Assembly: GCA_040767965.1 (NCBI GenBank)
Contig: JAXGNR010000009.1
Location: forward strand, 37,955-101,954
Direction: 5' to 3'
From: Atribacterota bacterium
Lineage (GTDB): Bacteria; Atribacterota; Phoenicimicrobiia; Phoenicimicrobiales; Stramentimicrobiaceae
DNA length: 64,000 bases
Below are positions 33,588-61,460 of this stretch, one piece after another. The notes under the pieces are model-generated. The model worked only from the letters and a program-made list of their open reading frames with translations, did no database searches and was not told the DNA's origin. Each line of letters begins with the position of its first letter. Position 1 is the stretch's first letter. The position numbers and the translations under genes were made by a program.

Positions 33588-34443
33588 ATGAAATATTTAA
33601 GGTTATTTCTATCTTTTATTATTTTTTTTCTGATTATATCAACTATATCTGCTTTTGCTGCTGATATTCCTGAACATTCATTTTATTCGCCCCTTCCTGG
33701 ATCAGTGTGCTGAAAAATATGTCAAAATATACTAACTTTGATTCATACAAATTTTATGTCACAAATGAAGAAACCCAAAAGAGAGAAGAAGAGGTTAAGG
33801 GGGGTAAAAAATGGCAACTGTTTATGAAGTTCGCACACCTTCCGGAGATAGAGTCAGGTGGGATATCTAAATTAGAGTTTTTTGAAAATTAAAGCTGCAG
33901 CCCTTGAGAGAGGGCGGCAAGGTCGTCTTTGAGGACCAGGGACAGATGGTTCTGACCATACCCAGGGAAGATGGAGGAATTACCTGGTGCCGGGTTAGCG
34001 GCAATGCGGGATTAGGCCAGCAGGACTTAGTTGTTATAGATGAAGAAGGTTTTAAAAAATCCCTTACCTTTGGTCCTGCTGAATTAAAAGAAGCATTGGA
34101 CAGTGAAGGAAGAATAATACTCTATGATATTCTGTTTGACTATGACAAGGATACCTTGAAACAGGAATCTGATAAACAGTTGCAACATATCGTTACATTA
34201 CTATTGCAAAATCCTGAATTAAAGGTTGAGATACAGGGTCATACTGATGACGAAGGAGAAGAAGGATATAATTTAACCCTATCAGATAAAAGGGCAAATA
34301 CTGTGCTCCAATATCTACAATTATTCGGAATTGGTTCAGAAAGACTTCTATCCAAAGGATATGGTGAATCCCAGCCGGTTGCTACCAATGACACTGAAGA
34401 GGGCAGGGCAAAGAATCGTCGGGTAGAATTGGTCAAGATGTAA
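33588..34443 (+). pseudogene. OmpA-family protein, frameshifted
   Basis: Signal peptide ORF from ATG 33588 ends early; downstream frames carry an OmpA C-terminal domain (NRRVELV, TDDEG...YNLTLSDKRA). Confidence 0.65.
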
Positions 34444-34447
34444 ATTA

Positions 34448-34490
34448 ACATAAGCCTCTCATTTAATCATTGAGAGGCTTATGTTTTGTG
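34448..34490. terminator. Bidirectional intrinsic terminator
   Basis: ATAAGCCTCTCA / TGAGAGGCTTAT stem between convergent genes. Confidence 0.55.
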
Positions 34491-35581
34491 TAAAGACAAA
34501 TAGTGTAATGAGTAGCTATGCCAGCTAAAAATCCAAAAAACATATTTGTTACTAAAGCAACCAGGATAGTGGCCAGCATAGGAATTAAATTTTTGCTGGT
34601 CTTTACTTCTCTGGTGAATTTTAACAACTCCACTCCTACCATAAACATCATAGATCCAATAATTGCCAATGGAAAAACTGAAAATAGACTGGCAATAGAG
34701 GCTGAAAGAAATAATCCAAGGAATATTTCTATCAATCCTTCCAGGATATTGGCACCACCAGTTCTGGCTCCAAAATAGTACTGACCTGCTAATCCACCTG
34801 CACCATGACAGGTAGGCATTCCACCCAAAAAAGGAAGGATTGTGTTCATAATTCCCTGGTTCCAGGCAAGTTGTTTTTCACTTACATTTTTTTCAGGCCA
34901 ATATTTTTTAATCAAGGAAGATGTAGCAATGGTAGCATTTGTAGCTGTAAGTGGAACTTGTGCAAACCCAGCTAAGAGCAATGTCTGCCATACTTCTTTT
35001 ATGGAAAAGGTAGTAAAAGAAGGCATAACCAGAGAAGGAGCACTAAGTTGGTCAAATTGTCCCTGTATCAGCATTATTAATAACCCGATTACCATTAATA
35101 CAATTGCAGCTGGTGTATACCTGTTTTGCCTGAACAATAATACAATGATAATGGCAGCAATGCTGATAATCCAGTTTGTAGAGATCATTTTATAAGCTTG
35201 GAACATTAATAATATTCCCAGGGTTACTTGAATTCCCCGGATTACGGAATTTGGTGTTATTTTGGAGATTCGCTCAATAATCCCAGTTGTTGCAAGTAAA
35301 ATCCATATTATCCCCATTCCAAACCCGGAGGCATAGACCATGGAAGGAGTCCATTGCTGTGCAATTGCCACAATAGCTATAATTTTCATAGGTTCTATGG
35401 GTACTGGAAGCCGGTAAACCAATCCGGTTACTATATTACATAAGCCCATCATCACCAAAAAACTGGCTGGATCCAACCCGCAAACCACAATATAACCAAT
35501 GGCTAAAGGTAAAAGGGTACCAAAATCTCCCATTGAACCTGCCAGTTCTCTCAGGTTAAATTCAAAGGATTTTATTCTCAT
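34463..35581 (-). CDS. Putative sulfate/molybdate transporter (MOT/SulP-like)
   Basis: 372 aa polytopic membrane protein; last gene of the minus-strand uptake operon. Confidence 0.55.
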   Translation of the reverse strand: MRIKSFEFNLRELAGSMGDFGTLLPLAIGYIVVCGLDPASFLVMMGLCNIVTGLVYRLPVPIEPMKIIAIVAIAQQWTPSMVYASGFGMGIIWILLATTGIIERISKITPNSVIRGIQVTLGILLMFQAYKMISTNWIISIAAIIIVLLFRQNRYTPAAIVLMVIGLLIMLIQGQFDQLSAPSLVMPSFTTFSIKEVWQTLLLAGFAQVPLTATNATIATSSLIKKYWPEKNVSEKQLAWNQGIMNTILPFLGGMPTCHGAGGLAGQYYFGARTGGANILEGLIEIFLGLFLSASIASLFSVFPLAIIGSMMFMVGVELLKFTREVKTSKNLIPMLATILVALVTNMFFGFLAGIATHYTICLYTKHKPLND

Positions 35582-35694: not shown

Positions 35695-36465
35695 CTAACA
35701 AACAACACTAACAACTCTTTTGGCTTCTTCAACATAGACTGTTTTAATAGAAAGTCCATATAAATTAGAAAGAGTTTCGGCATTGATTGTTTCTGCAGAT
35801 TGTCCAACACCCAGGATCCCCTTACGATTGAGAATAGCAACTTTACCATTCAGAATAATAGCATGTTCCGGATTATGTGTTGTCATAATTAATGCATACC
35901 CTTCATCAGCCAGTTGGCTAATCATCTGTACTGCACGGTGCTGATTACCATAATCTAAGTGAGCTGTGGGTTCGTCAAGCAAGATTATTTTTGGTTGTTG
36001 AGTGATTACTCTGGCAATTAACACCATTTGTCTTTCACCACCGGAAATTTCAGTATACGGTTTATCTCTGAGATGGGAAATACCGAGACGTTCCAGCGAT
36101 TCATCAGCAATTCTATAATCTATTTTTCCAGGAGTTTTAAAAGCACCAATATAGGGAGTTCTACCCATAACAGTAAATTCTCTGACTGTAAAGGCATAAG
36201 CAGGGATATGAATTTGTGGAACGTAACCAATTATCTGGGCAACATCACGAATATTCATCTTTGAAAGAGACTGTCCGTTTAATCGAATTTCACCCGATTT
36301 TGGTTTGTAAATATTTGCAATGCAGTTGAGAAGTGTTGATTTTCCACACCCGTTAGGACCTAATATAGAGAGTATTTCACCATCATCTAGTTGAAAGCTA
36401 ACATTTTGGAAAATTGATCGTCCGTTATGGTATTTAAAACTGAGATTATTTATTTCAAGAAGCAT
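35695..36465 (-). CDS. ABC transporter ATP-binding protein (FecE/BtuD-type)
   Basis: Walker A GPNGCGKST, signature SGGERQ, Walker B ILLDEP. Confidence 0.9.
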   Translation of the reverse strand: MLLEINNLSFKYHNGRSIFQNVSFQLDDGEILSILGPNGCGKSTLLNCIANIYKPKSGEIRLNGQSLSKMNIRDVAQIIGYVPQIHIPAYAFTVREFTVMGRTPYIGAFKTPGKIDYRIADESLERLGISHLRDKPYTEISGGERQMVLIARVITQQPKIILLDEPTAHLDYGNQHRAVQMISQLADEGYALIMTTHNPEHAIILNGKVAILNRKGILGVGQSAETINAETLSNLYGLSIKTVYVEEAKRVVSVVC

Positions 36466-37550
36466 TATACCTGTCTCCTTTGTTTAAAAAGGATAAATAT
36501 AAAAAAGGGAGCCCCGATTACTCCGGTCAAAATTCCAAGCATAAGCTCAGCTGAAGTAAGAGTTCTACATAATATATCTATGATAAGCATAAATATCCCT
36601 CCAAAAATCATAGCGATTGGTAGCATTTTTTTATTATCTGAACCAATAATCATTCTGGCAGTATGTGGAATAACCAAACCAACCCATCCAACTGTACCTG
36701 ATAGACAAACAGAACTTGCTGTGATTAAGGTAGAAGATACAATGAATATTCCGCGAGTGGTACTGAGATTAATACCAAGCGTTTTTGCCTCATTATCACC
36801 CAGAGAGAGCACATTAAGTCTATATCTTAAAAGAATGATTATAATCATTGGCAGCAAAATTGTAGGTAATATAGGGATCATTGCATTAAAAGATACTTTG
36901 GCAAAAGAGCCCATCATCCAATAGGTAATTTCAGCTAATTGGGTGTCTGTATCTGCTACAAATTTTAAAATATTCATTATTGAAGACATTAGACTACCAA
37001 TAACTATTCCTGATAATACTAATACGATAGTAGACTGGTTTCGGATCAGTCTGGGTATGGTTACAGTTATAGCCACAGCAATCAACCCACCGGCAAATGC
37101 GCTAAGTTGAATCAATGCACTATCTTGATTTAAAAGGATCGCGGTAGCAGCCCCTACAGAAGCACCAGCTGATACACCTAACAGGTCAGGAGATACCATT
37201 GGGTTTTTAAAAATACTTTGGTAGGTGGCTCCGGAAAGCGCCAATGCTGCTCCAATGATAATGGCAGCAATTGTTCTAGGCAAACGCAGATTCATAACTA
37301 CAGCCTCTTGAATGCTATCCCAATTGTTGTCCATCGTTAAAATTTTTGAAAAAACAATCCGGAAAGTTTCCCTAAAAGGCACAGTATATTGTCCTATTGC
37401 CAGTGATATTCCTAAAACTATAAATAATAAAGCCAGAGAAAACAAAAAAATGCCATGATACTTAAAGATATCAAATATATTTTTCTTTTCTAAAACAACC
37501 TCTCCATTTAAACTGGAGAGGTTGTTTCTGTTTTGATTTATCTTTTTCAT
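36465..37550 (-). CDS. ABC transporter permease (FecCD/BtuC family)
   Basis: 361 aa polytopic permease. Confidence 0.9.
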   Translation of the reverse strand: MKKINQNRNNLSSLNGEVVLEKKNIFDIFKYHGIFLFSLALLFIVLGISLAIGQYTVPFRETFRIVFSKILTMDNNWDSIQEAVVMNLRLPRTIAAIIIGAALALSGATYQSIFKNPMVSPDLLGVSAGASVGAATAILLNQDSALIQLSAFAGGLIAVAITVTIPRLIRNQSTIVLVLSGIVIGSLMSSIMNILKFVADTDTQLAEITYWMMGSFAKVSFNAMIPILPTILLPMIIIILLRYRLNVLSLGDNEAKTLGINLSTTRGIFIVSSTLITASSVCLSGTVGWVGLVIPHTARMIIGSDNKKMLPIAMIFGGIFMLIIDILCRTLTSAELMLGILTGVIGAPFFIFILFKQRRQV

Positions 37551-37575: not shown

Positions 37576-38730
37576 TTACTGTACTGGAAATTCAGCTGAG
37601 CCATCAGGACGAAGACCATCAAGCATATATTCTGCCTGTGTCTGTGTTAGCTCATAGCCAGTATATATGCTATAAAAATCCCTGATTTCTTCAATCATTG
37701 CTTTTCTGTTAATAACGTTTACCCAGGCAATTTCAGGTTGGATGCGCATCAGAGCATAGTGGATTTGTAGTTGACTTTCCAGCCCAAAACGGTCCCAGTT
37801 AAAACAACCATAAGGGTTTGTGTATAATCTTTCATTAGATAAAGCCTTTAAATCTTTCCAGCCATCAGTGCTTTCCAGAACGTTTTTATTTATATGCTGA
37901 TAAACACCTGCACATATTATTACATCAGGATTTAAATCCCAGATAGCCTCTGGAGTTACTTCTCCGGAGCTTAGCTTCATTACCTCCGCAGCATTATTAC
38001 CTCCTGCAGATTCGATCCAATCAGAAATGATACTTCCTGCAGCCATAGTAGTGGTTACACTATCTGTTTGCCCAGCAATGTAATAGACGACCGGGCGATC
38101 ATTTTCTGCCAGACCTGAAGTTACCTTTCTTATCCCGGATAATTTGCTTTCAACTGCAGAACACCAATGATTAAGTTTTTCCTGATATTCCCCCCCAAGC
38201 ACTTCACCAAGGACAGTGTATGCCTTAACCATACTTTCATAGTCACTGAAATTGATATTTATAGCAGGAATACCAACATCACGAATTTGTTGAGCAAGAC
38301 CGCTGGCTGCAGTGGTTGGATGTATGATAACCAGATCAGGTTCTAAGTTTATCAGATTTTCAATTGCTGGAGTTATACCTCCCAGAGCGGGAATATTGAC
38401 ACAATCCGGATAAAAAAGTTGGGTCCAGGAGTTCATTGTTCCCGGATTGTTGACAGCCAGTCCAACTATTAGATCCCCAGCTCCCATTACAAAAAATGAG
38501 GATGTTCCTGCCGGCCATAAGTTAACAATTCTCTTAATTTCACCGGTTATGGTTACTGTATCACCACTCATATCCGTAACTGTAACTGTTTTATCAGCAG
38601 CGACAGAATTTATAACGGAAAACGCAATTGCAGTAAAGAAAATAAGTAGCAAAGCAAGTGTTTTAATTGTGATAGTGGTTTTTTTTGTTTTCATTATATT
38701 ACTTCTCCTTTTTATTGTTATATTCATCAT
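37576..38730 (-). CDS. ABC transporter substrate-binding protein, class 8 (BtuF/FhuD-like)
   Basis: Signal peptide after MKTKKTT; true start may be the internal Met. Confidence 0.8.
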   Translation of the reverse strand: MMNITIKRRSNIMKTKKTTITIKTLALLLIFFTAIAFSVINSVAADKTVTVTDMSGDTVTITGEIKRIVNLWPAGTSSFFVMGAGDLIVGLAVNNPGTMNSWTQLFYPDCVNIPALGGITPAIENLINLEPDLVIIHPTTAASGLAQQIRDVGIPAININFSDYESMVKAYTVLGEVLGGEYQEKLNHWCSAVESKLSGIRKVTSGLAENDRPVVYYIAGQTDSVTTTMAAGSIISDWIESAGGNNAAEVMKLSSGEVTPEAIWDLNPDVIICAGVYQHINKNVLESTDGWKDLKALSNERLYTNPYGCFNWDRFGLESQLQIHYALMRIQPEIAWVNVINRKAMIEEIRDFYSIYTGYELTQTQAEYMLDGLRPDGSAEFPVQ

Positions 38731-38809: not shown

Positions 38810-40120
38810 TTATTCTAAAGGATCTTTGCCAAATATTTCACTGCGTGGTAAAAAGCCGGCAGCTTCTTTATCTATTTCCAAAAACATTCTGGTAAATTCT
38901 TTTGCGGCCTCTTTGTGCAATGCAGCCCTTGGAATTGTTAAAGCATGAGCAATAGGTGTAGCTATTACAGATGTATTTTCATCTATGGCAAAAGTAACCC
39001 GGGCATATTTTTCAGCCAAAGAAGGATTGGCAAGATTCATTATTTCTGGTAGCTCTGCATAGTTTTTACCAAATACTTTGACTGCTGAACGATACATAAA
39101 AAGATATTTAGCCTGTTTTTGATTACCAAATAGACCAGGATTTTTTTCCATACCGATATGACCTGGATGATTCATCAGGCGATTTGTAAGTCCTGGTTTG
39201 TAATAATCTGCCAGCAGCATTGTCATTACAGCTCGATAACCGCTGGGGTCACCATAGGGATTGCCATGTTTGAATGTTGCATCTTCAGCAAGCAATTTTT
39301 CTTCCCAATTATCATTGTCTATATCTTCTCCTATTATTACCATTTCATTACCTGCCCAGATGCGGTATCCTTCAGCATAATCAGGCATCATCATAGAATT
39401 TATTATAGTATCATCCGCTGAAATCAATAGATCGCATGCTTTTCCACTTATGCAATCACGTATAAGATCTACTGATCCACCAGGTGTATAAATAACAGGC
39501 AGTTCAGGATGTAATTCATTCCATTTTTCAACAATAGTTTTTACCAGTCCCATTGATACACCTGCACAAAATACATTTAGTCTATAAGGGGCAAGTTCTG
39601 CTTCAAGTGAGGAGAGGGCTTCTGCTTTTTCTTTACGAACATCAGTAACTTTTTGGGCCAGTATACCTAAAAAATTACGCAGCATAATACCTTGTGGTTT
39701 ACTATATTTTTCTCCATAATACCTGGTAACCATTTCTCCGCTCATTCGCAACAGGTAAAGGTCAAATGTCTCATTTTTTGGTCCACCAGGGGGAGGACCT
39801 TTGATTTTTATTCTGGGAGCTCTACTCTTGTTCATTTCAGATAAACAAGGAATTTCTCCCATCATCATGCCCGGCTCAGTAGGTTTAGGCATATTGTATT
39901 GATCTAATCTGGGTTCTAAAAGTTCAAGTGGTTTTCCTTTAAGCACTACACAAAACATGCCTTCATTTATATCAATTGGCAAAGTTTTATATTGACCAGC
40001 TTCCCGACGTACCATTTCAGGTTTCATCACCTCTAACAGCGAGATCAGTTCTTCTTCATCGATATTTTGAAACAGAGTCATGGTTTTTAATTCAGGTAGA
40101 AAATCCCGATAATTTAACAT
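38810..40120 (-). CDS. Two-domain protein: N-terminal cNMP-binding-like region plus ModA/WtpA-like solute-binding domain
   Basis: 436 aa; no signal peptide; FCAGVSMG...GGSVDL...SGKACDLLISAD resembles molybdate/tungstate-binding proteins; first gene after the structured leader. Confidence 0.45.
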   Translation of the reverse strand: MLNYRDFLPELKTMTLFQNIDEEELISLLEVMKPEMVRREAGQYKTLPIDINEGMFCVVLKGKPLELLEPRLDQYNMPKPTEPGMMMGEIPCLSEMNKSRAPRIKIKGPPPGGPKNETFDLYLLRMSGEMVTRYYGEKYSKPQGIMLRNFLGILAQKVTDVRKEKAEALSSLEAELAPYRLNVFCAGVSMGLVKTIVEKWNELHPELPVIYTPGGSVDLIRDCISGKACDLLISADDTIINSMMMPDYAEGYRIWAGNEMVIIGEDIDNDNWEEKLLAEDATFKHGNPYGDPSGYRAVMTMLLADYYKPGLTNRLMNHPGHIGMEKNPGLFGNQKQAKYLFMYRSAVKVFGKNYAELPEIMNLANPSLAEKYARVTFAIDENTSVIATPIAHALTIPRAALHKEAAKEFTRMFLEIDKEAAGFLPRSEIFGKDPLE

Positions 40121-40161
40121 ATTACCTCCTGAACATATATTTTATGTATTTGTTTTAAAAA

Positions 40162-40330
40162 TAAAAAAAACGCCTTGGAAAGGCGTTATAAAAAAAGCTG
40201 TACAGAATACAGCCTTTAAAATGTTTCCTTTCCAAATGGGAGGCATGGTGGCTAATCCGTGCCCTCGAATACAGTTTTTTCTGTATTACCGTTTGGCAAT
40301 TCCATTTCCAATTGCCAAATCGGAAACAAA
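40162..40330 (-). promoter_or_regulatory. Structured 5' leader with two tandem intrinsic terminators (riboswitch or attenuator candidate, class unassigned)
   Basis: On the minus strand, hairpins at 40197-40213 and 40170-40187 are each followed by a U-run; upstream GC-rich stems; about 45 nt before the RBS and start at 40120. Confidence 0.45.
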
Positions 40331-40681
40331 CAATATTTATATTTTATAAGTTATATCAAACTACATATTGATTATGTTATCAAAAATAGAAATTAATAAA
40401 CTAATAGGAATGCTAACATCTTTTATTTGTCAAGTCAAGCCCTTTTTATTAGAAGTAACTACTGGCTATTAGGCTATTTTAAAATCATTTAAAGAAATCT
40501 ATCTGAGAATTTTAAAAAAGGTTACAGTTAGCATTGACATATTATTTAATGCTAATTTTTATTTGGGCTAAGCCAAATGTAGAATAATATAAATTCTTAT
40601 AGATAATAATATTAGAATTAATTTTTTATTTCAAATATGTTAAACTTAAACATTTAAGAAAAATAGAAAGGATAAAAAATA

Positions 40682-46087: not shown

Positions 46088-46308
46088 ATATTGACAAACA
46101 TAAAGAAATGGTAAATACTTTTAATAGTCTGCCTGAAAAAAAATATTATTACAGAATACCACAACTCCGAATTATCTAACCTAATGATAAAATACTATTT
46201 TTTTCTATGGTTAGATAATCAGTTATTATTTGTAAAATAACCAAGGGCAATTAAGGAAACTTAATTGCCTCCCATAATTGGAAAGGAGGGATACTTTGCA
46301 TGAAGTTC

Positions 46309-46385: not shown

Positions 46386-47231
46386 ATGGAATTTGTAACA
46401 TTAAATAACGATATAAAAATGCCCATGTTAGGGTATGGTGTATTTCAGATTGCAGATGAAAAAATATGCGAACAATGCGTATCTGATGCCATTAAGGCCG
46501 GCTATCGTTCCATTGATACAGCAGCAGCTTATTTAAACGAAGAAGCAGTAGGAAGAGGTATTGAAAAAAGTGGAATACCCAGAGAAGAACTCTTTATAAC
46601 AACTAAAGTCTGGGTACAGGATGCCGGTTATGAAAATGCTAAAAAAGCTTTTGAAAAATCCATGCAAAAATTGCAGCTGGATTACCTTGACCTATATTTA
46701 GTTCACTGGCCTTTTAGTGATTATTATGGTTCCTGGAGGGCAATGGAGGAACTTTATAAAGAAGGAAGAATCAGGGCAATTGGTGTTTCTAATTTTTCCA
46801 GAGATCGCCTGTTTGATTTAATATTAAATAGCGAGATAGTGCCAGCAGTTAACCAGGTTGAAGTACATCCGTTTAATCAGCAGATAGAACAAAAGAAGAT
46901 CATGGATGACTTAAAAGTACAGATGGAATCCTGGGGGCCACTGGCACAGGGTAAAAACAATATTTTTAAAGATGAAATATTGTCTGCCATTGGAAAGAAG
47001 TACAGCAAAACTGTGGCTCAGGTAATCCTGCGCTGGCATATTCAACGTGGAGTTGTTGCTATTCCCAAATCTGCTACCAAAGAAAGAATTATAGAAAATT
47101 ATAATATATGGGACTTTCAATTAAGCCAGGAAGATATGGATGCTATTAAATCTTTTGATACAGGCAAACCTTTCCTGGACGGCACCAGCTTAGAGACTGT
47201 TAAAAGATTAAACAGCAGTAAGATCCATTAA
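46386..47231 (+). CDS. Aldo/keto reductase
   Basis: 281 aa; IDTAAAY and LVHWP motifs. Confidence 0.9.
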   Translation: MEFVTLNNDIKMPMLGYGVFQIADEKICEQCVSDAIKAGYRSIDTAAAYLNEEAVGRGIEKSGIPREELFITTKVWVQDAGYENAKKAFEKSMQKLQLDYLDLYLVHWPFSDYYGSWRAMEELYKEGRIRAIGVSNFSRDRLFDLILNSEIVPAVNQVEVHPFNQQIEQKKIMDDLKVQMESWGPLAQGKNNIFKDEILSAIGKKYSKTVAQVILRWHIQRGVVAIPKSATKERIIENYNIWDFQLSQEDMDAIKSFDTGKPFLDGTSLETVKRLNSSKIH

Positions 47232-47332: not shown

Positions 47333-48790
47333 ATGGTTATAAAAAAGAAGAGAGTTATCCTGATTGTATGGGATGGACTAAGATCGGATTTTGTCAACAA
47401 AAGATTTACTCCAAACCTTTTTGAATTTGCCAGCAAAGGTGTTTTGTTTAAAAATCATCATTCAGTGTTTCCCAGCTGTACACGAGTGAACTGTGCATCA
47501 ATGGTTACCGGATGCTATCCCGATATGCATGGACTGATGGGCAATCAAATCTATATTTGTGATAAAAATCAGGATTTAAAGGTAATTTCAACCAGCAACT
47601 ACAAGCTTCTCAAGGAGTATAACAGACAAACTAAAGGGAATATGCTCCGAAAAACATCTATTACAGAAATTTTGAATGACCATCAAAAGAAATCTTTAGT
47701 ACTAAGTACTGGTTCGGGTGGTTCTGCTTATATCTTTGACCACAAAGAAAGCGGAGTGGTTATCAACAGCTCTTTTTGTTTCCCTGCAGAAATTTCTGAA
47801 CAATTAAGAAAAAAGATAGGGCCTTTCCCTGTTGAAGAAGTACCAAATAAAGAGCAAAACAAATATTTAGTACAGTCGTTTTTTAATTACTTTTTACCGG
47901 AAATGGACCCGGATTTAACTATTCTTTATTTGTGTGAACCGGATAAAACTCAGCACTATTATGGTATTGGTACTGTTCAATCCTGTCAGACAATTAAAGA
48001 CAATGACGACCTTTTTGGAGAATTTTTAATCGGACTTCAACAGTATAATTCTGTTAATGAAACAGATATCTTGATTACCTCTGACCATGGCGGTTCAACT
48101 ATTACAGGTACTGTTAACCCAGTCGATCTGTTAATTGAGGGTGGTTTTAAAGAAAATGAAAATTCAGACGATTTAACCATTGTTTCTTCAGATGGAAGCA
48201 TTGGTATATACCTGAAAAATTGGCAAAAAAATAAAATAATAGAAATAATTAAATACTTACAAGAACATGAATGGGTCGGACCCATCTTTTCAAAGACAGG
48301 AAGAGGAAAACTAGGATTAACTCCAGAGATAATGAATCTGGAGTTAATCAGATATAAAAATAATTTAGCTCCAGATTTATTGTTGTCTCTGAATTGGAAT
48401 ACAGGAAAAAATAAAAATGGCTTTCCCTGTGGAACCTATGCAGATACCTCCGTTTACCCTGTTGGCGGTGGAATGCATGGCTCTTTCAGCCCTTATGATA
48501 TGCACAATATTTTAATAGCGACAGGACCATCATTTCAATCCGGGTTGATAAGTAATTATCCTTCAGGAAATATCGACCTTGCTCCAACGATTTTATATTT
48601 ATTAGGATTAACCAACTCAGGAATGGACGGGCGCATCCTCGAAGAAGCATTTACTGGTTCTATCTTATTTTCAAAGGAACAATGGGAAGAGAAGATAATT
48701 GAAACAGAAGGTATTTCCTATAAACAAAGACTTGTAGTAAAAGAATTCGCAGGAAGGGAATATTTTACAATGTGTGAAGTAAACAAATGA
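47333..48790 (+). CDS. Alkaline-phosphatase-superfamily protein (nucleotide pyrophosphatase/phosphodiesterase-like)
   Basis: VWDGLRSD metal-binding N-terminal motif; SDHGG motif. Confidence 0.7.
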   Translation: MVIKKKRVILIVWDGLRSDFVNKRFTPNLFEFASKGVLFKNHHSVFPSCTRVNCASMVTGCYPDMHGLMGNQIYICDKNQDLKVISTSNYKLLKEYNRQTKGNMLRKTSITEILNDHQKKSLVLSTGSGGSAYIFDHKESGVVINSSFCFPAEISEQLRKKIGPFPVEEVPNKEQNKYLVQSFFNYFLPEMDPDLTILYLCEPDKTQHYYGIGTVQSCQTIKDNDDLFGEFLIGLQQYNSVNETDILITSDHGGSTITGTVNPVDLLIEGGFKENENSDDLTIVSSDGSIGIYLKNWQKNKIIEIIKYLQEHEWVGPIFSKTGRGKLGLTPEIMNLELIRYKNNLAPDLLLSLNWNTGKNKNGFPCGTYADTSVYPVGGGMHGSFSPYDMHNILIATGPSFQSGLISNYPSGNIDLAPTILYLLGLTNSGMDGRILEEAFTGSILFSKEQWEEKIIETEGISYKQRLVVKEFAGREYFTMCEVNK

Positions 48791-48846: not shown

Positions 48847-51800
48847 TTAAAATCTTAAATTTAAACCGAATTTAAAGCGATAATCGCTATCATTTATTGA
48901 AAAGCCTTCAAATTGAGTATTCAGTGACAGATCCGAAGAAACCTGATAATCAATACTGATGATTTTTTCACCTTGGAAATCTAAAGGGGTGGTATAACTA
49001 ATAAAAAAGTCATCACTTATATTTTTCCCTACCTCTAATTTTAAACTTGACAGATTCATCTTTTCAAATAAAAAGATACTGTCATCATCAGAAAATAAAT
49101 TTTCAGTTGATAATCTTAAAAAATCTAAACCAAGCTGTTGTGCCAATCCACTTTCTATTTGACGCAGTAAATTTATCTGAATGCTTTGAAACAGGATTTC
49201 TATCAATTCCTGAGAGAGTAACTGATTTAATTCTCCCTCAGAAAGGCCTTCAATGTTTCTTCCCAGGGCCAGTAGAGAGATTATTTCAGTCTCCAGCATT
49301 ACAGGCTGGGATGATAAACGTACCTGGGGCTGGGCTAAGTTACCGGAAACATCTATCATTATTAGAACATCCTGAACCATAGTCTCTGCCCTGGCGTTAA
49401 TATTAATATCATTAACTGTAAAGCCGTTAATTGCAGCTCGTCCTTCAGTGATATTAAATTGTCTTTCTAAATAAACCAGAGAACCTCTTCTTAAATTAAT
49501 GTTTCCCTGAATAGAAAGATCATCCAGTTGCCCGGTTAAAAGAGCGTTTCCGGTTATATAAATTTCGGCATTTGGAAGCCTCAATGTAAAAGGATCAGCA
49601 ATAACAATATTCATATCCAGCTGAACAGGTAGCGCAGGAGATTGACTATCCTGAGATTCAGGAATGAGCTCATCCAGATTAAATGCTTGTAGCTGGTTAA
49701 GATTCAAATGACCATTAGTTAAGTATAATTGGCTTTCTATCTCTAAAGCTGGCCATGAACCTTTAGTTTCTGCAGTAAAAATGATTTCACTTTCAATAAT
49801 ATTTTGAAAAGAAATCTTCTGCTGGATATTTTTAATAGAAATAGAAATATTTTCGGGATAAAAAGAAATGAATTCAAAATGACCTTCTAAAGTAAATTGA
49901 TTTTCAAATGCTGTTAATGGAATTGGTAAAATTATTACTTCATTATCATTAATCTCTATTCTGGTATCAACTTGTTCTAATTTAACCGGGAAATCTTTTA
50001 ATGACAGACCTCCTTCCTGAATATCAATATAGCCATTTAAAAGAGGCATACTGCTGGTACCGGTTAAACTAAGGTTCAGATCAATATTACCTGTATAATT
50101 TGCAAAGATATCTTTCCAGAAAAGATTTAATATATTCAAATCAGCTTGTTCCATTTTAATTTGAAAATCTAGCGGAAAATCCAACCCGGAAGAGGGAATG
50201 GCAGAAACCCGATCCTCTATAAAGAAAGAATCCAAGGGTAGATTGCCTTGTGCTACGATCTGATATTCTTCTTCTAAAGAAAGAATGAAATCTCTTACTT
50301 CTAAATTTCTATTCTGACTATTCCAGTAAAAATCGGCATGCAGGTCTTCAAATTTGAATTCTCTAAAATCACCTTCCTGCATTCGGGCTACTATTAAAAT
50401 CTCCGGCTGGGTAAGGATACCTTTTAAAGTTCCTTCAATATCCATGATTCCATTAGCCGTTTCTTGAGTGTCAATAAGCTGCAGCAGAGTTTTTATATCA
50501 AGTTGTTCTGCTTGGAAATTTATATCCAAAACCTGATCTAATCCAATACTTCCTTCTGCTCTCAGCTGACCAGCAGGTTGAATAAAGTGAAAATCAGAAA
50601 TAAAAAATCTTTGTTCCTGGTAAGAAATTTCTGCTTCTATTTCAGAAGCTAAAGAACTGTCTGGTATTTGAGGAAGAATCTGGAGAGATAGCTCCATCTG
50701 CTGCTTATCTTTATCCCCACTAAAAGCCACTCTTCCGTTTATATTTGAAGGTAAAAATTCTTTTAAACTATTATCTTCTAAAGGATAAAAAGATTCAACC
50801 AAATCAATAATATATTCAGAGGAAAATTCCGTTTCTCCGGAAAATTGGAAATCTTCTCCTATTTTTATTTTCCCATAAACCAGCAATTCCATCATTTCAT
50901 TTTTTAAATCTAATTCTTCCAGTAGTAGAGAATAAGTGTAACCATTTATGTTCAACAATGCAGATAAACTATCTTCACTTTCAACAGGGTAAAGGATGCT
51001 TTTTTCAGGCTGTAAGATAAAATTTGCTCTGCCATTTCCTAAAGGATAATTATCATAAAGGATTTCTTCTAATAAAAAATTCCCTGATAAAGTTAATACA
51101 GGCCATATTCCTTGAATTATCCCATTCCCGGATGTTGATCCGGATAGTGGAGTAGAAAATGTAAAAATTTGACCCAGATTTTCAATATTGATAGATTCTA
51201 ATTGATAGACAAGATCAACTTCAGGTGCATCAATTGTATTCAGGTTTATATTTCCAGAACTGGTAAGGTTTAATTCCTGATTTTTTATAGAAAAATCTTG
51301 CAAGGAAATGATATTATTTTGTAATGACAGGATTCCGTTTAAATTACCTAAATAATATTCTTGAAAAGATAGTTCCTGCAACCTGAATTCGGCAATAATA
51401 TCAGGATTACTGGCATTGCCGGTGATAGCAGCTTCTATCTCTGCACTACCTGCAATTTTTTGGTCAAAAGCCAAAACATTTATCAGATTGGAGATTTCCG
51501 GTGTTTGATATTCAATATTTAAGGCAAAGCGGGCAGTTTCAGCAAAGCTTATATTTCCTTCAATAAGTGCCAGATCATCTAACAATTCTATTTTGCCTTG
51601 CTGGATAGAAATAGTGTTTTTTGCAAGATTGACAGTTGATTTTAGCTCACCTGCCAAAGGATCAGCCAACAGGATATTGTTGATAACAAGTGAATCTATG
51701 GTAAATTGACCTTCAAGCTCCAGGAGGCTGCTGTTTCCCCAGGTATTTTCTATTTTAAAATTACTATCAAGATTTCCGGAAATATCTTTCAAACACGAAA

Positions 51801-53193
51801 ATTGATTAAACGCAGGGTGGTGCAAAGAGAAATTTGTTGTTTTTAAAAGTATTTGATAATAAGGTAATTCTTCAGACCAATCAATATGTCCCTGAACTGC
51901 CAAAGAAGATTCTGCATCTGCAGCAGTTAACGAATGAATAACAAGTCCATTTTTATTTACTGAAAATTCTAAATCAATATTTTGAAAATCAACATTTTCA
52001 ATATTAATTTTAGGAGAATATGCTTCTGCTCCTATCTGGAATTCCTCTGGCTGTCCTTGTATGGTGGCACTTAAATCAATATCTCCCTGAAAAGAAAAAT
52101 CTTCAAAGTCTGGCCAAAACAAAATTAAATCGCTTTTTAAAACAGCAGAATTTAAAATGGTACTTTTCAAATCAAGATCAACATATACTTCAGGTTCTGT
52201 TGAGATTAATCCGCTTAACTCAATGGTATTTCCCTTATAAAGTCCTTCTAGTTTAGAAATGGTTATTTCAGGTTTCAGGATATTTATAGAACCATGAATA
52301 TTATCAAGAGGAATTTCTTCTAAAAATAAAGGATTTGCCTGGACTTGATACAGGATTATCTCGCCCTGCCAAAAAGGAGTTTCGTCATCGTTTCCAGAAG
52401 ACAAGTTTAAATTAAGGTTAAGATCGAATTTCCCTTTATTTATATTGAATTCCTTCCCGATTTCCAGATAGTGCTGAAAATGGGTTAGGTCAGCATTCTT
52501 TAAAGTGAAGTTAATTGTATAATAGGGTTGATCAGCATAAATATTTCCATTTAAAATAAGTGTTGTGCTGTCTTCTTTATGATTTCCTTGAAAATCAAAG
52601 ATAATTTCAGGCAAATTTGACAAATCCAGATATCCATTAATATTTTCTACTTGTGTAGTTAATGCTTCTCTCTCATAAAAATATATCAGTTCATCATGCA
52701 AGGTTAAATGGCTATCCTGAAAATAAACGCGGTCTATAAATATATTCTGCTGATCTTCTCCAAATTCAAGATCAAATTTTTTTAATAAATCAAATTGACC
52801 GTCAATTTCTCTGACGACTTCCAGATAGGTATTGTAAATAGTGATGGCATGTATGTCGAGTTCCCAATTTTTCCAATCAAGAAGAGATAATACCAAATTG
52901 AAGTCAATTTTAACTTTTTCTGCCTGCAGTAAAATATCTTTTTTATCAGCTTGATCATTAAAAACAATAATTTTATTTACCTGCAACGATTGTAAAGAAA
53001 TATTATCCAGAGAATCAATCTCTACTCTTTTCCCCAGACTGCCTTCAAGCTGTGCTATCAGGAGAGATTTAATTTTGGGTTGTAAAAAATCACTATTTAA
53101 AAAATAATAAAAGACACCAATAATTAAGAGTATTGCTAATGCAAATATTAGAGAAAATATTATAAATTTACTATTTATTTTTATACTTATCAA
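48847..53193 (-). CDS. tamB: TamB/AsmA-like translocation and assembly module protein
   Basis: 1448 aa; N-terminal signal-anchor; long beta-rich repetitive body; intact single frame. Confidence 0.75.
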   Translation of the reverse strand: MISIKINSKFIIFSLIFALAILLIIGVFYYFLNSDFLQPKIKSLLIAQLEGSLGKRVEIDSLDNISLQSLQVNKIIVFNDQADKKDILLQAEKVKIDFNLVLSLLDWKNWELDIHAITIYNTYLEVVREIDGQFDLLKKFDLEFGEDQQNIFIDRVYFQDSHLTLHDELIYFYEREALTTQVENINGYLDLSNLPEIIFDFQGNHKEDSTTLILNGNIYADQPYYTINFTLKNADLTHFQHYLEIGKEFNINKGKFDLNLNLNLSSGNDDETPFWQGEIILYQVQANPLFLEEIPLDNIHGSINILKPEITISKLEGLYKGNTIELSGLISTEPEVYVDLDLKSTILNSAVLKSDLILFWPDFEDFSFQGDIDLSATIQGQPEEFQIGAEAYSPKINIENVDFQNIDLEFSVNKNGLVIHSLTAADAESSLAVQGHIDWSEELPYYQILLKTTNFSLHHPAFNQFSCLKDISGNLDSNFKIENTWGNSSLLELEGQFTIDSLVINNILLADPLAGELKSTVNLAKNTISIQQGKIELLDDLALIEGNISFAETARFALNIEYQTPEISNLINVLAFDQKIAGSAEIEAAITGNASNPDIIAEFRLQELSFQEYYLGNLNGILSLQNNIISLQDFSIKNQELNLTSSGNINLNTIDAPEVDLVYQLESINIENLGQIFTFSTPLSGSTSGNGIIQGIWPVLTLSGNFLLEEILYDNYPLGNGRANFILQPEKSILYPVESEDSLSALLNINGYTYSLLLEELDLKNEMMELLVYGKIKIGEDFQFSGETEFSSEYIIDLVESFYPLEDNSLKEFLPSNINGRVAFSGDKDKQQMELSLQILPQIPDSSLASEIEAEISYQEQRFFISDFHFIQPAGQLRAEGSIGLDQVLDINFQAEQLDIKTLLQLIDTQETANGIMDIEGTLKGILTQPEILIVARMQEGDFREFKFEDLHADFYWNSQNRNLEVRDFILSLEEEYQIVAQGNLPLDSFFIEDRVSAIPSSGLDFPLDFQIKMEQADLNILNLFWKDIFANYTGNIDLNLSLTGTSSMPLLNGYIDIQEGGLSLKDFPVKLEQVDTRIEINDNEVIILPIPLTAFENQFTLEGHFEFISFYPENISISIKNIQQKISFQNIIESEIIFTAETKGSWPALEIESQLYLTNGHLNLNQLQAFNLDELIPESQDSQSPALPVQLDMNIVIADPFTLRLPNAEIYITGNALLTGQLDDLSIQGNINLRRGSLVYLERQFNITEGRAAINGFTVNDININARAETMVQDVLIMIDVSGNLAQPQVRLSSQPVMLETEIISLLALGRNIEGLSEGELNQLLSQELIEILFQSIQINLLRQIESGLAQQLGLDFLRLSTENLFSDDDSIFLFEKMNLSSLKLEVGKNISDDFFISYTTPLDFQGEKIISIDYQVSSDLSLNTQFEGFSINDSDYRFKFGLNLRF

Positions 53194-56803: not shown

Positions 56804-58318
56804 ATGAAAGAAAAGGTTTATTTACCTGACAAAGAAAATTTATTTAATACAAGCGAAGATCTAAATTTACTTATTGTCTACCATAAAATGCTTGCTGATA
56901 CTGAAACTCCTATTAGTGTGTTTGAAAAAGTGGGCCAGTCAGGTTTTAGTTATTTACTGGAAAGTGCAGAAGGAGGAGATAAATTAGCTCGTTATTCCTT
57001 TATTGGAATTAATCCCTTTTTAGTTTTCCAGAGTAAGGGTAAAAATATAACTATCCATAAGGAAAAGAAAACAGAAAATCATACAGGTAACCCTTTTGAT
57101 ATATTACGGCAAACGATGAATAATTTTAAAACAAAACTTCCAATAGAAGGATTGCCCCGTTTTTTTGGAGGAGGAGTTGGTTATTTTGGTTATGACATGA
57201 TTAGATTTATTGAAGATATCCCTCACAGCACTAAAGATGATCTGAACATTCCTGATTGCCTGTTGAGGTATGCTGGAATAATAATTGTTTTTGATCATTT
57301 AACTCATCAAATGTGGATTATTGCCAATACTTCTTTTGATAAAGACATTTTTCCAAAAGAAGAGGCATATCTTGATTCTACCAATCGGATAGATAGAATA
57401 ATCTCAAAATTAAATAATCACGATTCTGAATTCCGACCTGAAAACAAATCTGCAGTTAATGGAATTAAAGGAGATCCTTCAAAATTAAAAACCAATAGTA
57501 ATTTAAAAAAAGAAGAATTTATAAAAAAAGTAGAAAAAGCAAGAGAATACATTAAGCAAGGTGATGCTTTTCAGATTGTATTATCTCAACGCTTAAACAG
57601 AAAAAATACTGAAGATCCTTTTAAGATTTACCGTTCTTTGCGAAGTTTGAATCCATCCCCTTATATGTACTATCTGAATTATGGAGACATTCAGATAGTG
57701 GGAGCTTCTCCTGAACCTTTAGTCAGGTTGACTGAAGATCTGGTAGAAAGTAAGCCTTTGGCTGGAACACGTCATAGAGGGATAAATATACAAGAAGATT
57801 TAGCTCTGGAAAAAGACTTGCTGGCAGATGAAAAAGAAAAAGCTGAGCATACCATGTTAGTTGATTTGGCCAGAAATGATCTGGGTCGCATCTGTATCCC
57901 GGGCAGCGTTCAGGTTAGTCAATATCTGAAAGTTGAAAAATTTTCTCATGTTATGCACTTAGTATCTGAGGTACAGGGAATTATTGAAAAGAAAAAAGAT
58001 GCCCTAGATGCTTTAGAAGCCAGCTTTCCTGCAGGAACCGTTTCTGGTGCCCCAAAAATAAGAGCAATAGAGATTATTGATGAACTGGAGGAGAACGATA
58101 GAGGGCCTTATGCTGGAGCAGTCGGTTATCTTGGCTTTAATGGAAATATGGATACTTGTATTACTATTCGAACTATTGTTTTTAAGAATAATGAGGCCTA
58201 TATCCAGGCAGGTGCCGGGATAGTATACGATTCAATTCCAGAAAAGGAGTACCAGGAAACTTTGAACAAAGCACAAGCTTTGTTCAAAGCTATTGAATTA
58301 GCAGAGAATGATAAATAG
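56804..58318 (+). CDS. trpE: Anthranilate synthase component I
   Basis: 504 aa; chorismate-binding C-terminus (GAGIVYDS). Confidence 0.95.
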   Translation: MKEKVYLPDKENLFNTSEDLNLLIVYHKMLADTETPISVFEKVGQSGFSYLLESAEGGDKLARYSFIGINPFLVFQSKGKNITIHKEKKTENHTGNPFDILRQTMNNFKTKLPIEGLPRFFGGGVGYFGYDMIRFIEDIPHSTKDDLNIPDCLLRYAGIIIVFDHLTHQMWIIANTSFDKDIFPKEEAYLDSTNRIDRIISKLNNHDSEFRPENKSAVNGIKGDPSKLKTNSNLKKEEFIKKVEKAREYIKQGDAFQIVLSQRLNRKNTEDPFKIYRSLRSLNPSPYMYYLNYGDIQIVGASPEPLVRLTEDLVESKPLAGTRHRGINIQEDLALEKDLLADEKEKAEHTMLVDLARNDLGRICIPGSVQVSQYLKVEKFSHVMHLVSEVQGIIEKKKDALDALEASFPAGTVSGAPKIRAIEIIDELEENDRGPYAGAVGYLGFNGNMDTCITIRTIVFKNNEAYIQAGAGIVYDSIPEKEYQETLNKAQALFKAIELAENDK

Positions 58319-58350
58319 AATAATCAGCTAAATAAAAGGAGGAGATAAAA

Positions 58351-58953
58351 ATGATTTTAGTAATTGATAATTATGATTCTTTTACTTACAACCTTGTCCA
58401 GTACTTAAGCGAGTTTGGTATTCCTGTAGAGGTATTTAGAAATAATAAGATAGAAATAGCTGAAATTATGCAAAAGGACCTTTTAGGAATTGTAATTTCT
58501 CCCGGACCAGGAACTCCGGATGATGCAGGTATTTCAATTGAATTGATAAAAATAGCAGGACCTGAAATTCCAATCCTGGGTGTATGTTTAGGGCATCAGG
58601 CAATTGCTGTTGCTTATGGAGGAAGAGTACTTCCCAGTATAAAACTAATGCATGGCAAACCTTCTGATATTCATCATCAACAAAAAGGTATTTATGAAGG
58701 TATAGAGAGTCCTTTTTTAGCAGGTAGATATCACTCTTTAATGGTTGATATTGACTCTTTTCCTGATTGTCTCGAGATAAATGCCCGAACTGATGACAAT
58801 ATTATAATGGGTATCCAGCATAAAGAATATCCAGTGATTGGAGTGCAATATCACCCGGAATCTATTTTAACAAAAATGGGAAAAATTTTATTAAAAAATT
58901 TCATTAGTTTTGCTAAAGAACATAAAAAAGACATCATCAGAATGAAACGATAG
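58351..58953 (+). CDS. trpG: Anthranilate synthase component II (glutamine amidotransferase)
   Basis: GVCLGHQ catalytic Cys; HPES. Confidence 0.9.
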   Translation: MILVIDNYDSFTYNLVQYLSEFGIPVEVFRNNKIEIAEIMQKDLLGIVISPGPGTPDDAGISIELIKIAGPEIPILGVCLGHQAIAVAYGGRVLPSIKLMHGKPSDIHHQQKGIYEGIESPFLAGRYHSLMVDIDSFPDCLEINARTDDNIIMGIQHKEYPVIGVQYHPESILTKMGKILLKNFISFAKEHKKDIIRMKR

Positions 58954-58997
58954 TAAAAATATTTAAAAATATTTTCTAAAAAAGAAAGGAGGGTAAT

Positions 58998-60023
58998 ATG
59001 TACCAGACAATTCAGAATAAATTATTATTTGGAAAAGATTTAGCTGAAAAAGAAGCTAATCAATTAATGAATGAGATTATGCAAGGAGAGCTAACCTCAG
59101 CACAAATTGCCAGTTTCTTAACCGCCCTGCGAATTAAAGGAGAAACAATAGAAGAAATTATCGGTTGTGCTCTGGCCATGAGGGAAAATGCAGTCCGTAT
59201 AAAAAAAGAATTCCCTTTTGCTATAGATACCTGTGGAACTGGAGGAGATGAGAAAGGAACTTTTAACATCTCTACTGTTACTGCATTTGTGGTTGCAGGT
59301 GCCGGATTAAAAGTTGCAAAGCATGGTAATAGAAGTGTATCAAGCAAAAGTGGAAGTGCAGATGTATTAGAAGCTTTAGGAATAAATATTAATTTAACAC
59401 CCTTGCAGGTTGAAGAATGTTTGGAAAAAATAGGGATAGCTTTTTTCTTTGCTCCCATTTTCCACCCTGCAATGAAATTTGCTGTTACCCCGAGAAAAGA
59501 AATCGGATTTCGCACAATATTTAATCTGTTAGGGCCATTAACTAATCCGGCAGGAGTAAAACACCAGGTGTTAGGTGTATATAATCCTGCTTTAACAGAA
59601 GAAATTGCTCACACATTAAAGGCCTTGGGAGTTCAGGAGGCTATGGTAGTATGCAGCGAAAAAGGAATGGATGAAATATCACTTTCAGAAATTACTAAAA
59701 TCAGTCATGTTAAGAATGGGAAGGTGAAAACTTTTTATCTCAACCCGGAAGAAACAGGCTTTAGAAAATGTGATTTAAAGGAGCTATCTGGAGGAGATGC
59801 TCAGAGAAATGCAGAAATTGCAATGGAAATACTAACAGGAATCAAAAAAGATTCTATGTTAAATGTAGTATTGATAAATGCCTCTGCCGCTTTAATGATA
59901 GGAGGGCTTGCAGAAGATTTTTCTACAGGTATAGCAATTGCAAAAAATAGCATCGAATCGGGTGCTGCACTGGGAAAGATGTATGAATTGCGAGAATTAA
60001 GTTTAAGAGGTATTACTGCATGA
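58998..60023 (+). CDS. trpD: Anthranilate phosphoribosyltransferase
   Basis: DTCGTGGD and KHGNRS motifs. Confidence 0.95.
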   Translation: MYQTIQNKLLFGKDLAEKEANQLMNEIMQGELTSAQIASFLTALRIKGETIEEIIGCALAMRENAVRIKKEFPFAIDTCGTGGDEKGTFNISTVTAFVVAGAGLKVAKHGNRSVSSKSGSADVLEALGININLTPLQVEECLEKIGIAFFFAPIFHPAMKFAVTPRKEIGFRTIFNLLGPLTNPAGVKHQVLGVYNPALTEEIAHTLKALGVQEAMVVCSEKGMDEISLSEITKISHVKNGKVKTFYLNPEETGFRKCDLKELSGGDAQRNAEIAMEILTGIKKDSMLNVVLINASAALMIGGLAEDFSTGIAIAKNSIESGAALGKMYELRELSLRGITA

Positions 60024-60838
60024 ATATACTTGATAAGATTATTAGCAATAAAAAAAATGAAATTGAGCAGGATAAAAAACAATATTCTTTGCAATTTATC
60101 AAAAATAAGATTTCTAGAGAAAGCACCCCCAATCGCGATTTTTTTGGCAGTATAAGCAATTCAAAAACAGTTGCGCTTATTGCTGAGGTTAAATTTGCTT
60201 CACCTTCAGCTGGGACAATTAATCATAGAGATAATTTCCAAGACATTATTCGCAACTATGAAAAAGGAGGCGCTACAGCAATATCTGTTTTGACAGAAAA
60301 AAGATTTTTTCAGGGAAGGGAAGATGATATTGCTAAGGCGAAGCAAATTTCTAATTTTCCGGTTTTAAGAAAAGATTTTATTATAGATGAATATCAGGTC
60401 TATCAATCACGTTTTTTGGGTGCAGATGCAATTCTGTTGATTGCCTGCTTGCTGGAGACATCAAAAATCAGTCATTACCAGGAAATCGCTTTTACCTTAG
60501 GAATGGATTGCTTGATAGAGATACATACTGAAAATGAGTTAGAGAAAATTCTTCCTTTGCAGCCAAAAATGATTGGAATAAATAATAGAAAGTTAGAAGA
60601 TTTTTCTGTGGATCTTTCTATCAGTAAAAGAATAAGCTCTCATATTCCTGGCGATTCTATTTTAATAAGCGAAAGCGGTATAAAAGAAAGACAGGATATT
60701 GAAGAATTAAGTAATTATGGATTTGATGCAGTGCTGGTAGGTAGTTCTTTAATGACTAATCCACATACTCAAAATTTATTAAAAGAATTAGCAGGAGTAT
60801 TAAAAAAAGATAAAGGAATTTCTATAAATGTTAATTAA
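60020..60838 (+). CDS. trpC: Indole-3-glycerol phosphate synthase
   Basis: IAEVKFASPS and RKDFIIDEYQ motifs; 4-nt overlap with trpD. Confidence 0.9.
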   Translation: MNILDKIISNKKNEIEQDKKQYSLQFIKNKISRESTPNRDFFGSISNSKTVALIAEVKFASPSAGTINHRDNFQDIIRNYEKGGATAISVLTEKRFFQGREDDIAKAKQISNFPVLRKDFIIDEYQVYQSRFLGADAILLIACLLETSKISHYQEIAFTLGMDCLIEIHTENELEKILPLQPKMIGINNRKLEDFSVDLSISKRISSHIPGDSILISESGIKERQDIEELSNYGFDAVLVGSSLMTNPHTQNLLKELAGVLKKDKGISINVN

Positions 60839-61460
60839 AATATGTGGAATTAAAAATAAAAAAATAGCTCATTGGGCAGTAGAGGCAGGGGCTGATGCTT
60901 TAGGATTTGTTTTTGCACCCAGTTCTCGTTGTATCACTCCTTTTAAAGCAAAAGAAATTATAAAATCTTTACCACAGAATATCTTAAAAATCGGGGTTTT
61001 TGTAAATGAAGATATTGTTAAAGTAAGAGAAGTACAGCAATTCTGCGGGATTACGAACTTACAATTTCATGGCCAGGAAAGTGCTGAATACTGTAAACAA
61101 TTTGGAGTCCCTCTTATAAAAGCTATCAAGGTTAAAGTAAATGGAGAATTTGTTCCCGAACCTATAAATTACCAGAAGTCTGTCCAGTATTTTTTAGCTG
61201 ATACTTATCAGCATAAGAAAGAAGGAGGAACCGGAAAAACTTTCCCCTGGCAAATGGCTTTACCTTTAAAGGAATATGGGCCAGTAATTTTAGCAGGTGG
61301 ATTAAACCCTGAAAATATTTACCATGCTATTGATTTTGTCCAGCCAGAAGGAGTAGATGTAAGTAGTGGAGTAGAAACACATAATTCCAAAGATATTCAA
61401 AAAATAAAAAATTTTATTCAAGAAATATGGAGATGGGAAAATGAAAACAATCATACCTGA
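60828..61460 (+). CDS. trpF: Phosphoribosylanthranilate isomerase
   Basis: MLIKICGI N-terminus; position between trpC and trpB. Confidence 0.9.

Follow-up and report, generated by a model that had tools for sequence, protein, structure and literature searches.

The leader of a minus-strand uptake operon in the window, by which we mean the whole 64,000-nucleotide stretch of Atribacterota DNA that was analysed, very likely carries an aptamer of the Moco class coupled to an OFF-type expression platform that is based on its second hairpin, the terminator T2. Judged by core, architecture and regulon, the leader is a real, conserved riboswitch of that class, with Moco as its presumed ligand. It lies in a divergent intergenic space (minus strand 40329..40161; dapB begins on the plus strand at 40682) and consists of a multi-stem RNA and, 3' of it, two hairpins that each carry a U-run, the last U-rich stretch ending at ~40161, 41 nt upstream of the ATG at 40120. 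The sequence-only reading had described these stems and two U-tract hairpins, placing their end about 45 nt before the start codon, and had proposed that this is how a riboswitch attenuating the transcription of an uptake operon related to a metal cofactor would be laid out; the arrangement was confirmed, and the proposal is supported by an RF01055 match and by covariation of orthologous leaders. Read on the minus strand, the 5' part of the leader is UUGUUUCCGA-UUUGGCAAUU GGAAAUGG AAUUGCCAAA-CGGU-AAUACAG AAAAAA CUGUAUU and the 3' part is CGA-GGGCACGG AUUAGCCA CCAUGCCU-CCCAUUUGGAAAGGAAAC, after which come the hairpins H1 and T2 and the gene start. Folding of the 220-nt leader yields -65 kcal/mol, where 200 dinucleotide shuffles give -41.8 +/- 4.5 kcal/mol (z = -5.11; 0/200 as good). 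The elements of the leader outside the two hairpins are as follows.

40410..40438, minus strand: tentative sigma-70-like promoter, TTGACT, 17-nt spacer, TAGCAT, with TG ahead of the -10 (consensus scan only)
40327..40223, minus strand: multi-stem region (sequence reading)
40223..40327, minus strand: aptamer, compact variant of the Moco class, P1 5' strand to P1 3' strand, ~105 nt (RF01055 match, variant model, covariation)
40322..40327, minus strand: P1 5' strand GUUUCC, pairing with GGAAAC at 40228..40223 (99% paired across the 17 leaders, with two-sided changes at 2 pairs)
40292..40319, minus strand: P2, a plain uninterrupted 10-bp hairpin with the 8-nt loop GGAAAUGG and without the 11-nt tetraloop receptor (8/9 aligned pairs change on both sides)
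40268..40287, minus strand: P3, AAUACAG-AAAAAA-CUGUAUU (98.3% paired; 3 pairs change on both sides)
40241..40264, minus strand: P4, GGGCACGG / CCAUGCCU, with one C.A mismatch, the 8-nt loop AUUAGCCA and no GNRA tetraloop (model alignment, covariation, folding)
40227..40244, minus strand: conserved core GCCUCCC-AUU-UGGAAAGG, the end of P4, P5 and the junction (fits the invariant RF01055 consensus)
40118..40130, minus strand: ribosome-binding site AGGAGG (40130..40125) and ATG (40120..40118) of gene 1 (sequence and ORF list)

The promoter scan returned 9 sites where 5.3 were expected and so argues only weakly for the site at 40410..40438. A second candidate at 40359..40332 is less plausible, as transcription would then start inside P1. 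The single-sequence minimum free energy (MFE) fold lengthens P2 by CCG/CGG, but this extension was ruled out; leaders L168 and L174 have CUG and CAG there without a compensating change.

The aptamer had been called unclassified by the sequence-only reading, which left its class to a model search; once that search was run, the leader proved to be a structural subtype of a known class. It matches the Moco/Wco riboswitch model RF01055 at 40209..40337 (-) over model positions 1-135, the full length, with 33.8 bits and a local E of 3.4e-6. The gathering score of RF01055 is 36 bits, so that the match lies just below it, appears only when the leader alone is searched in E-value mode, and is missed by default annotation; the score is also about 40 bits below that of a normal member. 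At gathering level, the Rfam scan of the window found nothing at the leader; its only two riboswitches lie elsewhere, one a canonical Moco RNA (46153) and the other of the c-di-GMP-I class. Cobalamin and other riboswitch models did not match the leader, RF00174 giving nothing even at E <= 10, which agrees with the earlier remark that the cobalamin B12 box is absent. Matches of Phe_leader, ncS54, AaHKsRNA20, snoRNAs and CRISPR-DR46 over the hairpins (E = 0.02-8) were far under their thresholds and were treated as chance likenesses to a hairpin plus U-run.

All core motifs of RF01055 are present in the leader, namely UCCGA, AGGG, GCCUCCC and UGGAAAGGA. In the model alignment, UCCGA (at the P1/P2 junction), AGGG (before P4), GCCUCC(C) and UGGAAAGG(A) are placed on the consensus with high posterior probability, and they are invariant in 17 variant leaders. 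The full-length alignment also recovers the architecture of the class, P1-P5 around a multi-helix junction, and the operon is of the kind that the class typically precedes (molybdate/tungstate transport, cofactor synthesis, Mo/W enzymes). The OFF-type expression platform is likewise represented, by T2 with its U-run and a predicted antiterminator built from the P1 3' strand and the core. The leader departs from the class in two typical features, the tetraloop/receptor contact and a score above the gathering threshold.

Orthologous leaders were collected by way of the 436-aa product of gene 1, which has more than 100 relatives, from species-representative genomes, from the encoding contigs of relatives and from a metagenome pattern scan. 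The resulting variant set holds 17 distinct leaders including that of the window, all before one orthologous gene family, with record labels of Atribacterota, Lutispora, Clostridiaceae, Syntrophomonadaceae, Alkaliphilus and Ca. Stramentimicrobium or from unassigned metagenome contigs. The comparative alignment that the sequence-only reading had suggested did reveal covariation. For P1-P5 on this alignment (A2), 97.9% of cells are paired, compared with 91.7% in shuffles and about 40% in slid registers, and 17 of the 36 pairs change on both sides, a number reached in 0/500 shuffles. The layout before the gene 1 orthologue is identical in 17/17 variant leaders, whatever their upstream neighbours. 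The variant model R1 matches the window at 40221..40329 with 120.9 bits. Against RF01055, three of the 17 compact leaders score 36.0-36.4 bits and 12, including that of the window, score 29.2-35.3 bits, and L011 and L181 are not listed for RF01055 at E <= 0.01. The metagenome scan with the pattern GCCTCCC N{2,7} GGAAAGGAAAC was too unspecific, giving almost only canonical GC-rich soil Moco RNAs among the matches listed; these also included a single variant, L140, which nearly duplicates L011, and the canonical relative L060. A scan of viral contigs with CGGTAATA...GGG...GCCTCCC returned 60 stretches, none of which fit the variant model.

The same gene is preceded in other organisms by canonical RF01055 aptamers, in Spirochaetia (L014-L018), L179, Dehalococcoidales (L005) and L178, and these score 70-80 bits, in contrast to about 29-36 bits for the compact leaders. 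The one orthologous operon thus occurs with three aptamer types according to lineage, a P3-less type with a GCCUUCC/GAAAAGG core (L014-L018, L179), a canonical type with P3 (L005, L178) and the compact kissing-loop type (17 leaders). The leader of the window resembles the P3-containing Moco riboswitch in its full conserved core, P1-P5, P3, Mo/W transport genes and terminator-type OFF platform, but it lacks the GNRA loop on P4 and the receptor in P2 and has complementary P2 and P4 loops instead. Canonical relatives show CCUAAG...UAUGG at the position where the compact variant has the plain P2 hairpin, and GGAAAC at the P4 loop where the leader has AUUAGCCA. L060, L005 and L178 share the CCGAUU...AAACGG skeleton of the variant yet have the receptor and a GAAA loop, which confines the difference to distal P2 and the P4 loop. 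In the founding Moco RNA set, a GNRA tetraloop was present in 176/176 sequences, and the 11-nt receptor was present in 170 and absent in only 6 (Regulski 2008, PMC2408646). We take the tetraloop/receptor to be a typical rather than a strictly universal Moco feature, lying outside the conserved core. The P3-less Tuco/Wco subtype, which controls the orthologous operon in L014-L018 and L179 (70-80 bits), has no P3, keeps the tetraloop and receptor, and has the core GCCUUCC...GAAAAGG, whereas the window RNA has a covarying P3 (AAUACAG/CUGUAUU) and the core GCCUCCC...GGAAAGG.

The canonical Moco RNA in the same window (46153..46304 (+), 80.9 bits) carries the receptor in P2 (CCUAAU...CUAUGG) and a GAAA loop on P4 (GGAAAC), two elements that dock on each other. 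It is followed by a terminator-like hairpin and then by genes at 46386..47231 and 47333..48790, whose products are an aldo/keto reductase resembling DkgA and a protein of the type-I phosphodiesterase/sulfatase fold. Neither gene is an obvious member of a Moco regulon.

Complementarity between the P2 loop (UGGY) and the P4 loop (RCCN) of the compact leaders fits an antiparallel helix of 3-4 bp, for which the proposed strands are given below.

40302..40304, minus strand: UGG, 3' end of the P2 loop, proposed kissing strand (GG invariant in 17/17; pairs with the CC of the P4 loop)
40249..40251, minus strand: P4-loop CCA, the strand proposed to pair with UGG of the P2 loop (CC invariant in 17/17)

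In register 0, this pairing is 92.6% complete, with 6 cells changed on both sides compared with 0-1 in slid registers, and its covariation score, 0.298, is reached by none of 500 shuffles (0.178 +/- 0.030). Over the 17 leaders, pair 32-82 is C-G in 11, U-A in 5 and A.G in 1, the window, and pair 29-85 is U-A in 8, U-G in 4, C-G in 1 (L181, with CGGU facing ACCG) and unpaired or other in 4. In the window, the A to which the loss of the third kissing pair is due forms a tenth P2 pair instead, and UGG/CCA remains. The five U-A leaders also have in common a C-G pair in P2 (columns 13-39), and they therefore probably form one clade; the covariation of the kissing pairs, as read from the alignment, probably stems from no more than one or two independent events, roughly one double change and one single-sided improvement. 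A register shifted by +3, in which the P2-loop UGG meets the CCA of the P4 3' arm, was 82% paired and was set aside, showing no covariation and conflicting with the P4 stem. On this comparative evidence, we lean toward the view that P2/P4 loop-loop pairing replaces the lost contact between GAAA tetraloop and 11-nt receptor. Such an exchange would account for the low RF01055 score of the compact leader. No description of a loop-loop version of the Moco class was found in the searchable literature. Peripheral contacts are exchanged in other RNAs as well: some GEMM-I/c-di-GMP-I RNAs have a tetraloop receptor and others lack it, and purine, lysine and cobalamin riboswitches use loop-loop contacts. 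The likeness is one of analogy only, in that a helix-clamping long-range contact is exchanged or lost and the ligand core is kept. A GEMM parallel for the peripheral contact was drawn by Regulski 2008 (PMC2408646) itself.

Between P1 and the gene start, the two hairpins and the strands that could pair with the aptamer are placed as follows.

40194..40217, minus strand: hairpin H1, AAAGGCUGUAU-UCU-GUACAGCUUU, core -8.2 kcal/mol (ViennaRNA), terminator-like and apparently not ligand-controlled
40163..40187, minus strand: terminator T2, AACGCCUUUCCAAGGCGUU (40187..40169) plus a U8 run (40170..40163) (terminator scan; -8.8 kcal/mol, ViennaRNA)
40175..40183, minus strand: CCUUUCCAA, T2 5' arm and loop, predicted antiterminator 3' strand (perfect complement of UUGGAAAGG at 40235..40227)
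40235..40227, minus strand: UUGGAAAGG, predicted antiterminator 5' strand within the aptamer core (complementarity to the T2 5' arm)

The sequence-only reading had proposed two tandem terminators, and here its claim held in part. T2 is conserved, its hairpin and U-run being kept in 17/17 leaders and its complementarity to the aptamer likewise, and it was the only hairpin detected by the terminator scan (1 site, 0.4 expected). A hairpin between P1 and T2 is present in most of the 17 leaders, but a U-run after it is found only in the Atribacterota-like clade of the window (window U7, L003 U5, L006 U7, L007 U6, L165 U8), and H1 is predicted to form whatever the state of the aptamer. The U7 run of H1 (40196..40190) begins inside the H1 3' arm and reaches 4 nt beyond 40194; the scan probably missed H1 since an A/U extension of its stem consumes part of the U-run.

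The duplex of CCUUUCCAA with UUGGAAAGG has an energy of -11.9 kcal/mol in the window, compared with -4.0 kcal/mol for shuffles, of which 0/500 were as good. Across the 17 leaders, the median energy of the corresponding duplex of aptamer 3' strand and T2 5' arm is about -9.6 kcal/mol, where shuffles give about -4.3 kcal/mol, and in 15 leaders its energy does not exceed the 5% level of the shuffles. Compensating differences are seen in L009, where UUCGGAAAG faces CUUUCCGAA, and in L168, where the P1 strand ends in G and AAAGGAAAGU faces ACUUUCCUUU. In the ensemble of the window, the antiterminator has a pair probability of 0.63, and P1 and T2 have 0.36 each; the unconstrained MFE structures of the leaders show P1, H1 and T2 in some and an antiterminator enclosing H1 in others.

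These alternatives suggest a simple scheme. With the cofactor bound, P1 and the core would be locked and UUGGAAAGGAAAC occupied, so that T2 would form and RNA polymerase would stop at the U8 run before the operon. Without the cofactor, the T2 5' arm and loop (CCUUUCCAA) would invade and pair with UUGGAAAGG, T2 would not form, and the operon would be transcribed. The T2 3' arm could then additionally pair with AUGCCU of P4; this pairing is in the MFE structure of the window, and it was set aside as a general feature, exceeding shuffles in only ~4/17 leaders. The leader would in this way be an OFF riboswitch acting on transcription, a direction that agrees with Regulski 2008 (PMC2408646), where OFF switching is described for the Moco class, and terminator platforms too.

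H1 would lie inside the loop closed by the antiterminator and would form in both states. Its pair probability is ~1.0 across the whole ensemble of the window, so that no control of H1 by the ligand emerges from nearest-neighbour folding. Tentatively, polymerase may pause at H1, or H1 may attenuate in a leaky, constitutive way before the T2 decision. H1 is the weakest part of the model. The simple scheme does not explain read-through past a hairpin with a U7 run. The H1 5' arm CUGUAUU (H1, 40194..40217) repeats the P3 3' arm (P3, 40268..40287) letter for letter on the minus strand, and the two hairpins could exchange strands. Pairing of the P3 5' arm with the H1 5' arm was considered as an antiterminator for H1 and rejected; the complementarity is beyond shuffles in only 6/17 leaders, and the pairing is costlier in energy than two local hairpins.

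The operon downstream of the leader comprises five genes.

38810..40120, minus strand: gene 1, 436 aa, N-terminal ~180 aa without a known domain followed by an archaeal-type ModA/WtpA molybdate/tungstate-binding fold (Pfam, NCBIfam, structure model)
37576..38730, minus strand: Peripla_BP_2 binding protein (domain search)
36465..37550, minus strand: FecCD permease (domain search)
35695..36465, minus strand: ABC ATPase (domain search)
34463..35581, minus strand: MFS_MOT1 / SulP-like molybdate transporter homologue (PF16983 at 9.9e-54)

The domain matches bear out the content that had been read from the translations, a ModA-like fusion, a binding protein, a FecCD permease, an ATPase and a MOT/SulP-like transporter. 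On these assignments, the operon is one for Mo/W oxyanion acquisition, which fits the riboswitch class. The binding fold of gene 1 is indicated by Pfam SBP_bac_11, by NCBIfam WtpA at 1e-37, which is below the cut-off of that family, and by an AF2 model with a pLDDT of 85.6 that matches 2onr (1e-21) and 3cfz in Foldseek. A Pfam search of residues 1-180 gave no match even at E <= 10. No signal peptide was seen in this N-terminal region, and the product looks cytoplasmic; in the AF2 model, the N terminus comprises two helices and a small beta region, residues 91-114 are disordered, and a long helix spans 137-179. The fusion is kept in more than 100 proteins with record labels spanning several phyla, and in L177 the gene 1 orthologue is followed by MoeA. 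The type-II molybdate/tungstate importer MolA/MolB/MolC (HI1470-1472) is made up of Peripla_BP_2, FecCD permease and ATPase components. The operon combines the same three, a likeness by component type, but differs from MolABC in adding the cytoplasmic-looking ModA/WtpA-fold fusion protein and a MOT1-like transporter.

Gene content and aptamer type also bear on the ligand. The compact subtype could use the same scaffold for another ligand, sensing the tungsten cofactor or another pterin and not Moco, and would then work beside the canonical Moco riboswitch 6 kb away, keeping the Mo and W branches apart. Two different architectures do coexist in one genome, and WtpA, which binds tungstate, is the closest match to the binding domain of gene 1. 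The aptamers before the orthologous operons of Spirochaetia and L179 are, moreover, of the P3-less type tied to the tungsten cofactor (Regulski 2008, PMC2408646). We nevertheless consider a change of ligand unlikely. All core nucleotides are as in the canonical P3-containing type, and the differences are peripheral, in distal P2 and the P4 loop, at the canonical tetraloop-receptor site and not in the core. The WtpA/ModA and MolA-type systems, moreover, transport both oxyanions, molybdate and tungstate. P3 is also present, a feature that correlates with Moco rather than with tungsten-cofactor genes (Regulski 2008, PMC2408646). We similarly doubt that the compact subtype is a distinct functional class on the Moco scaffold, with a clamp tuned to another ligand (the tungsten cofactor, a metal-free or a dinucleotide pterin) or to another concentration range and with H1 as a second checkpoint through its copy of the P3 strand; were this so, one cell could regulate oxyanion uptake separately from other Moco-controlled genes.

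A riboswitch of the Moco class also has to be weighed against readings in which the leader senses nothing. A decaying aptamer, its sensing lost and its two hairpins left as constitutive attenuators or plain terminators, would be in keeping with the Rfam score below threshold, with the C.A mismatch in P4 and the A.G kissing pair of the window, and with the formation of H1 in every predicted state. Decay seems very improbable, however, when the compact architecture recurs in 17 distinct leaders from several labelled lineages, with compensatory changes in P1-P4, invariant core nucleotides, and a complementarity of terminator and aptamer that is maintained through compensating changes. The sequence-only reading had itself named the possibility that the hairpins only end an unrelated minus-strand transcript. 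In that case, or if they ended a free-standing small RNA, they would not be the expression platform of the operon; the weak, sub-threshold matches of small-RNA models over the hairpins (E = 0.02-0.5) point this way, and a riboswitch-terminated leader may persist as a short RNA. The neighbour dapB is divergent on the plus strand, however, so that no minus-strand gene runs into the region and none upstream needs these terminators. With the hairpins directly 3' of the aptamer, T2 complementary to it, and the same layout before the same gene in every variant leader, we give this explanation almost no weight.

A Moco-class subfamily in anaerobes labelled Atribacterota, Clostridia and Syntrophomonadaceae scores at or just below the Rfam threshold and for this reason is omitted by genome annotation, a systematic blind spot; adding the compact leaders to the RF01055 seed alignment would fix the gap. 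No solved structure of a Moco riboswitch and no direct binding data were found within the searchable literature, and a 2023 review attributes the small number of Moco riboswitch studies to the oxygen-sensitive ligand. A natural aptamer of ~105 nt with a simple loop-loop clamp would be a useful construct for structural work, and the swap of contacts would indicate which peripheral helices must come together. The compact, the canonical P3-containing and the P3-less aptamers on one uptake operon could serve as a natural test set for the long-standing question of specificity toward Moco versus the tungsten cofactor.

Elsewhere in the window, which has a GC content of ~0.33 and whose nearest protein relatives are labelled Atribacterota, the c-di-GMP-I riboswitch lies at 9533..9625 (+) with 48.7 bits, upstream of an ORF at 9730..10392 that gave a weak CarboxypepD_reg-like match only. 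A TamB-like protein of 1448 aa (48847..53193 (-)) and an OmpA-family protein (33904..34443 (+)) point to a diderm envelope, and a complete trpEGDCFBA-like operon is found at 56804..63428 (+).
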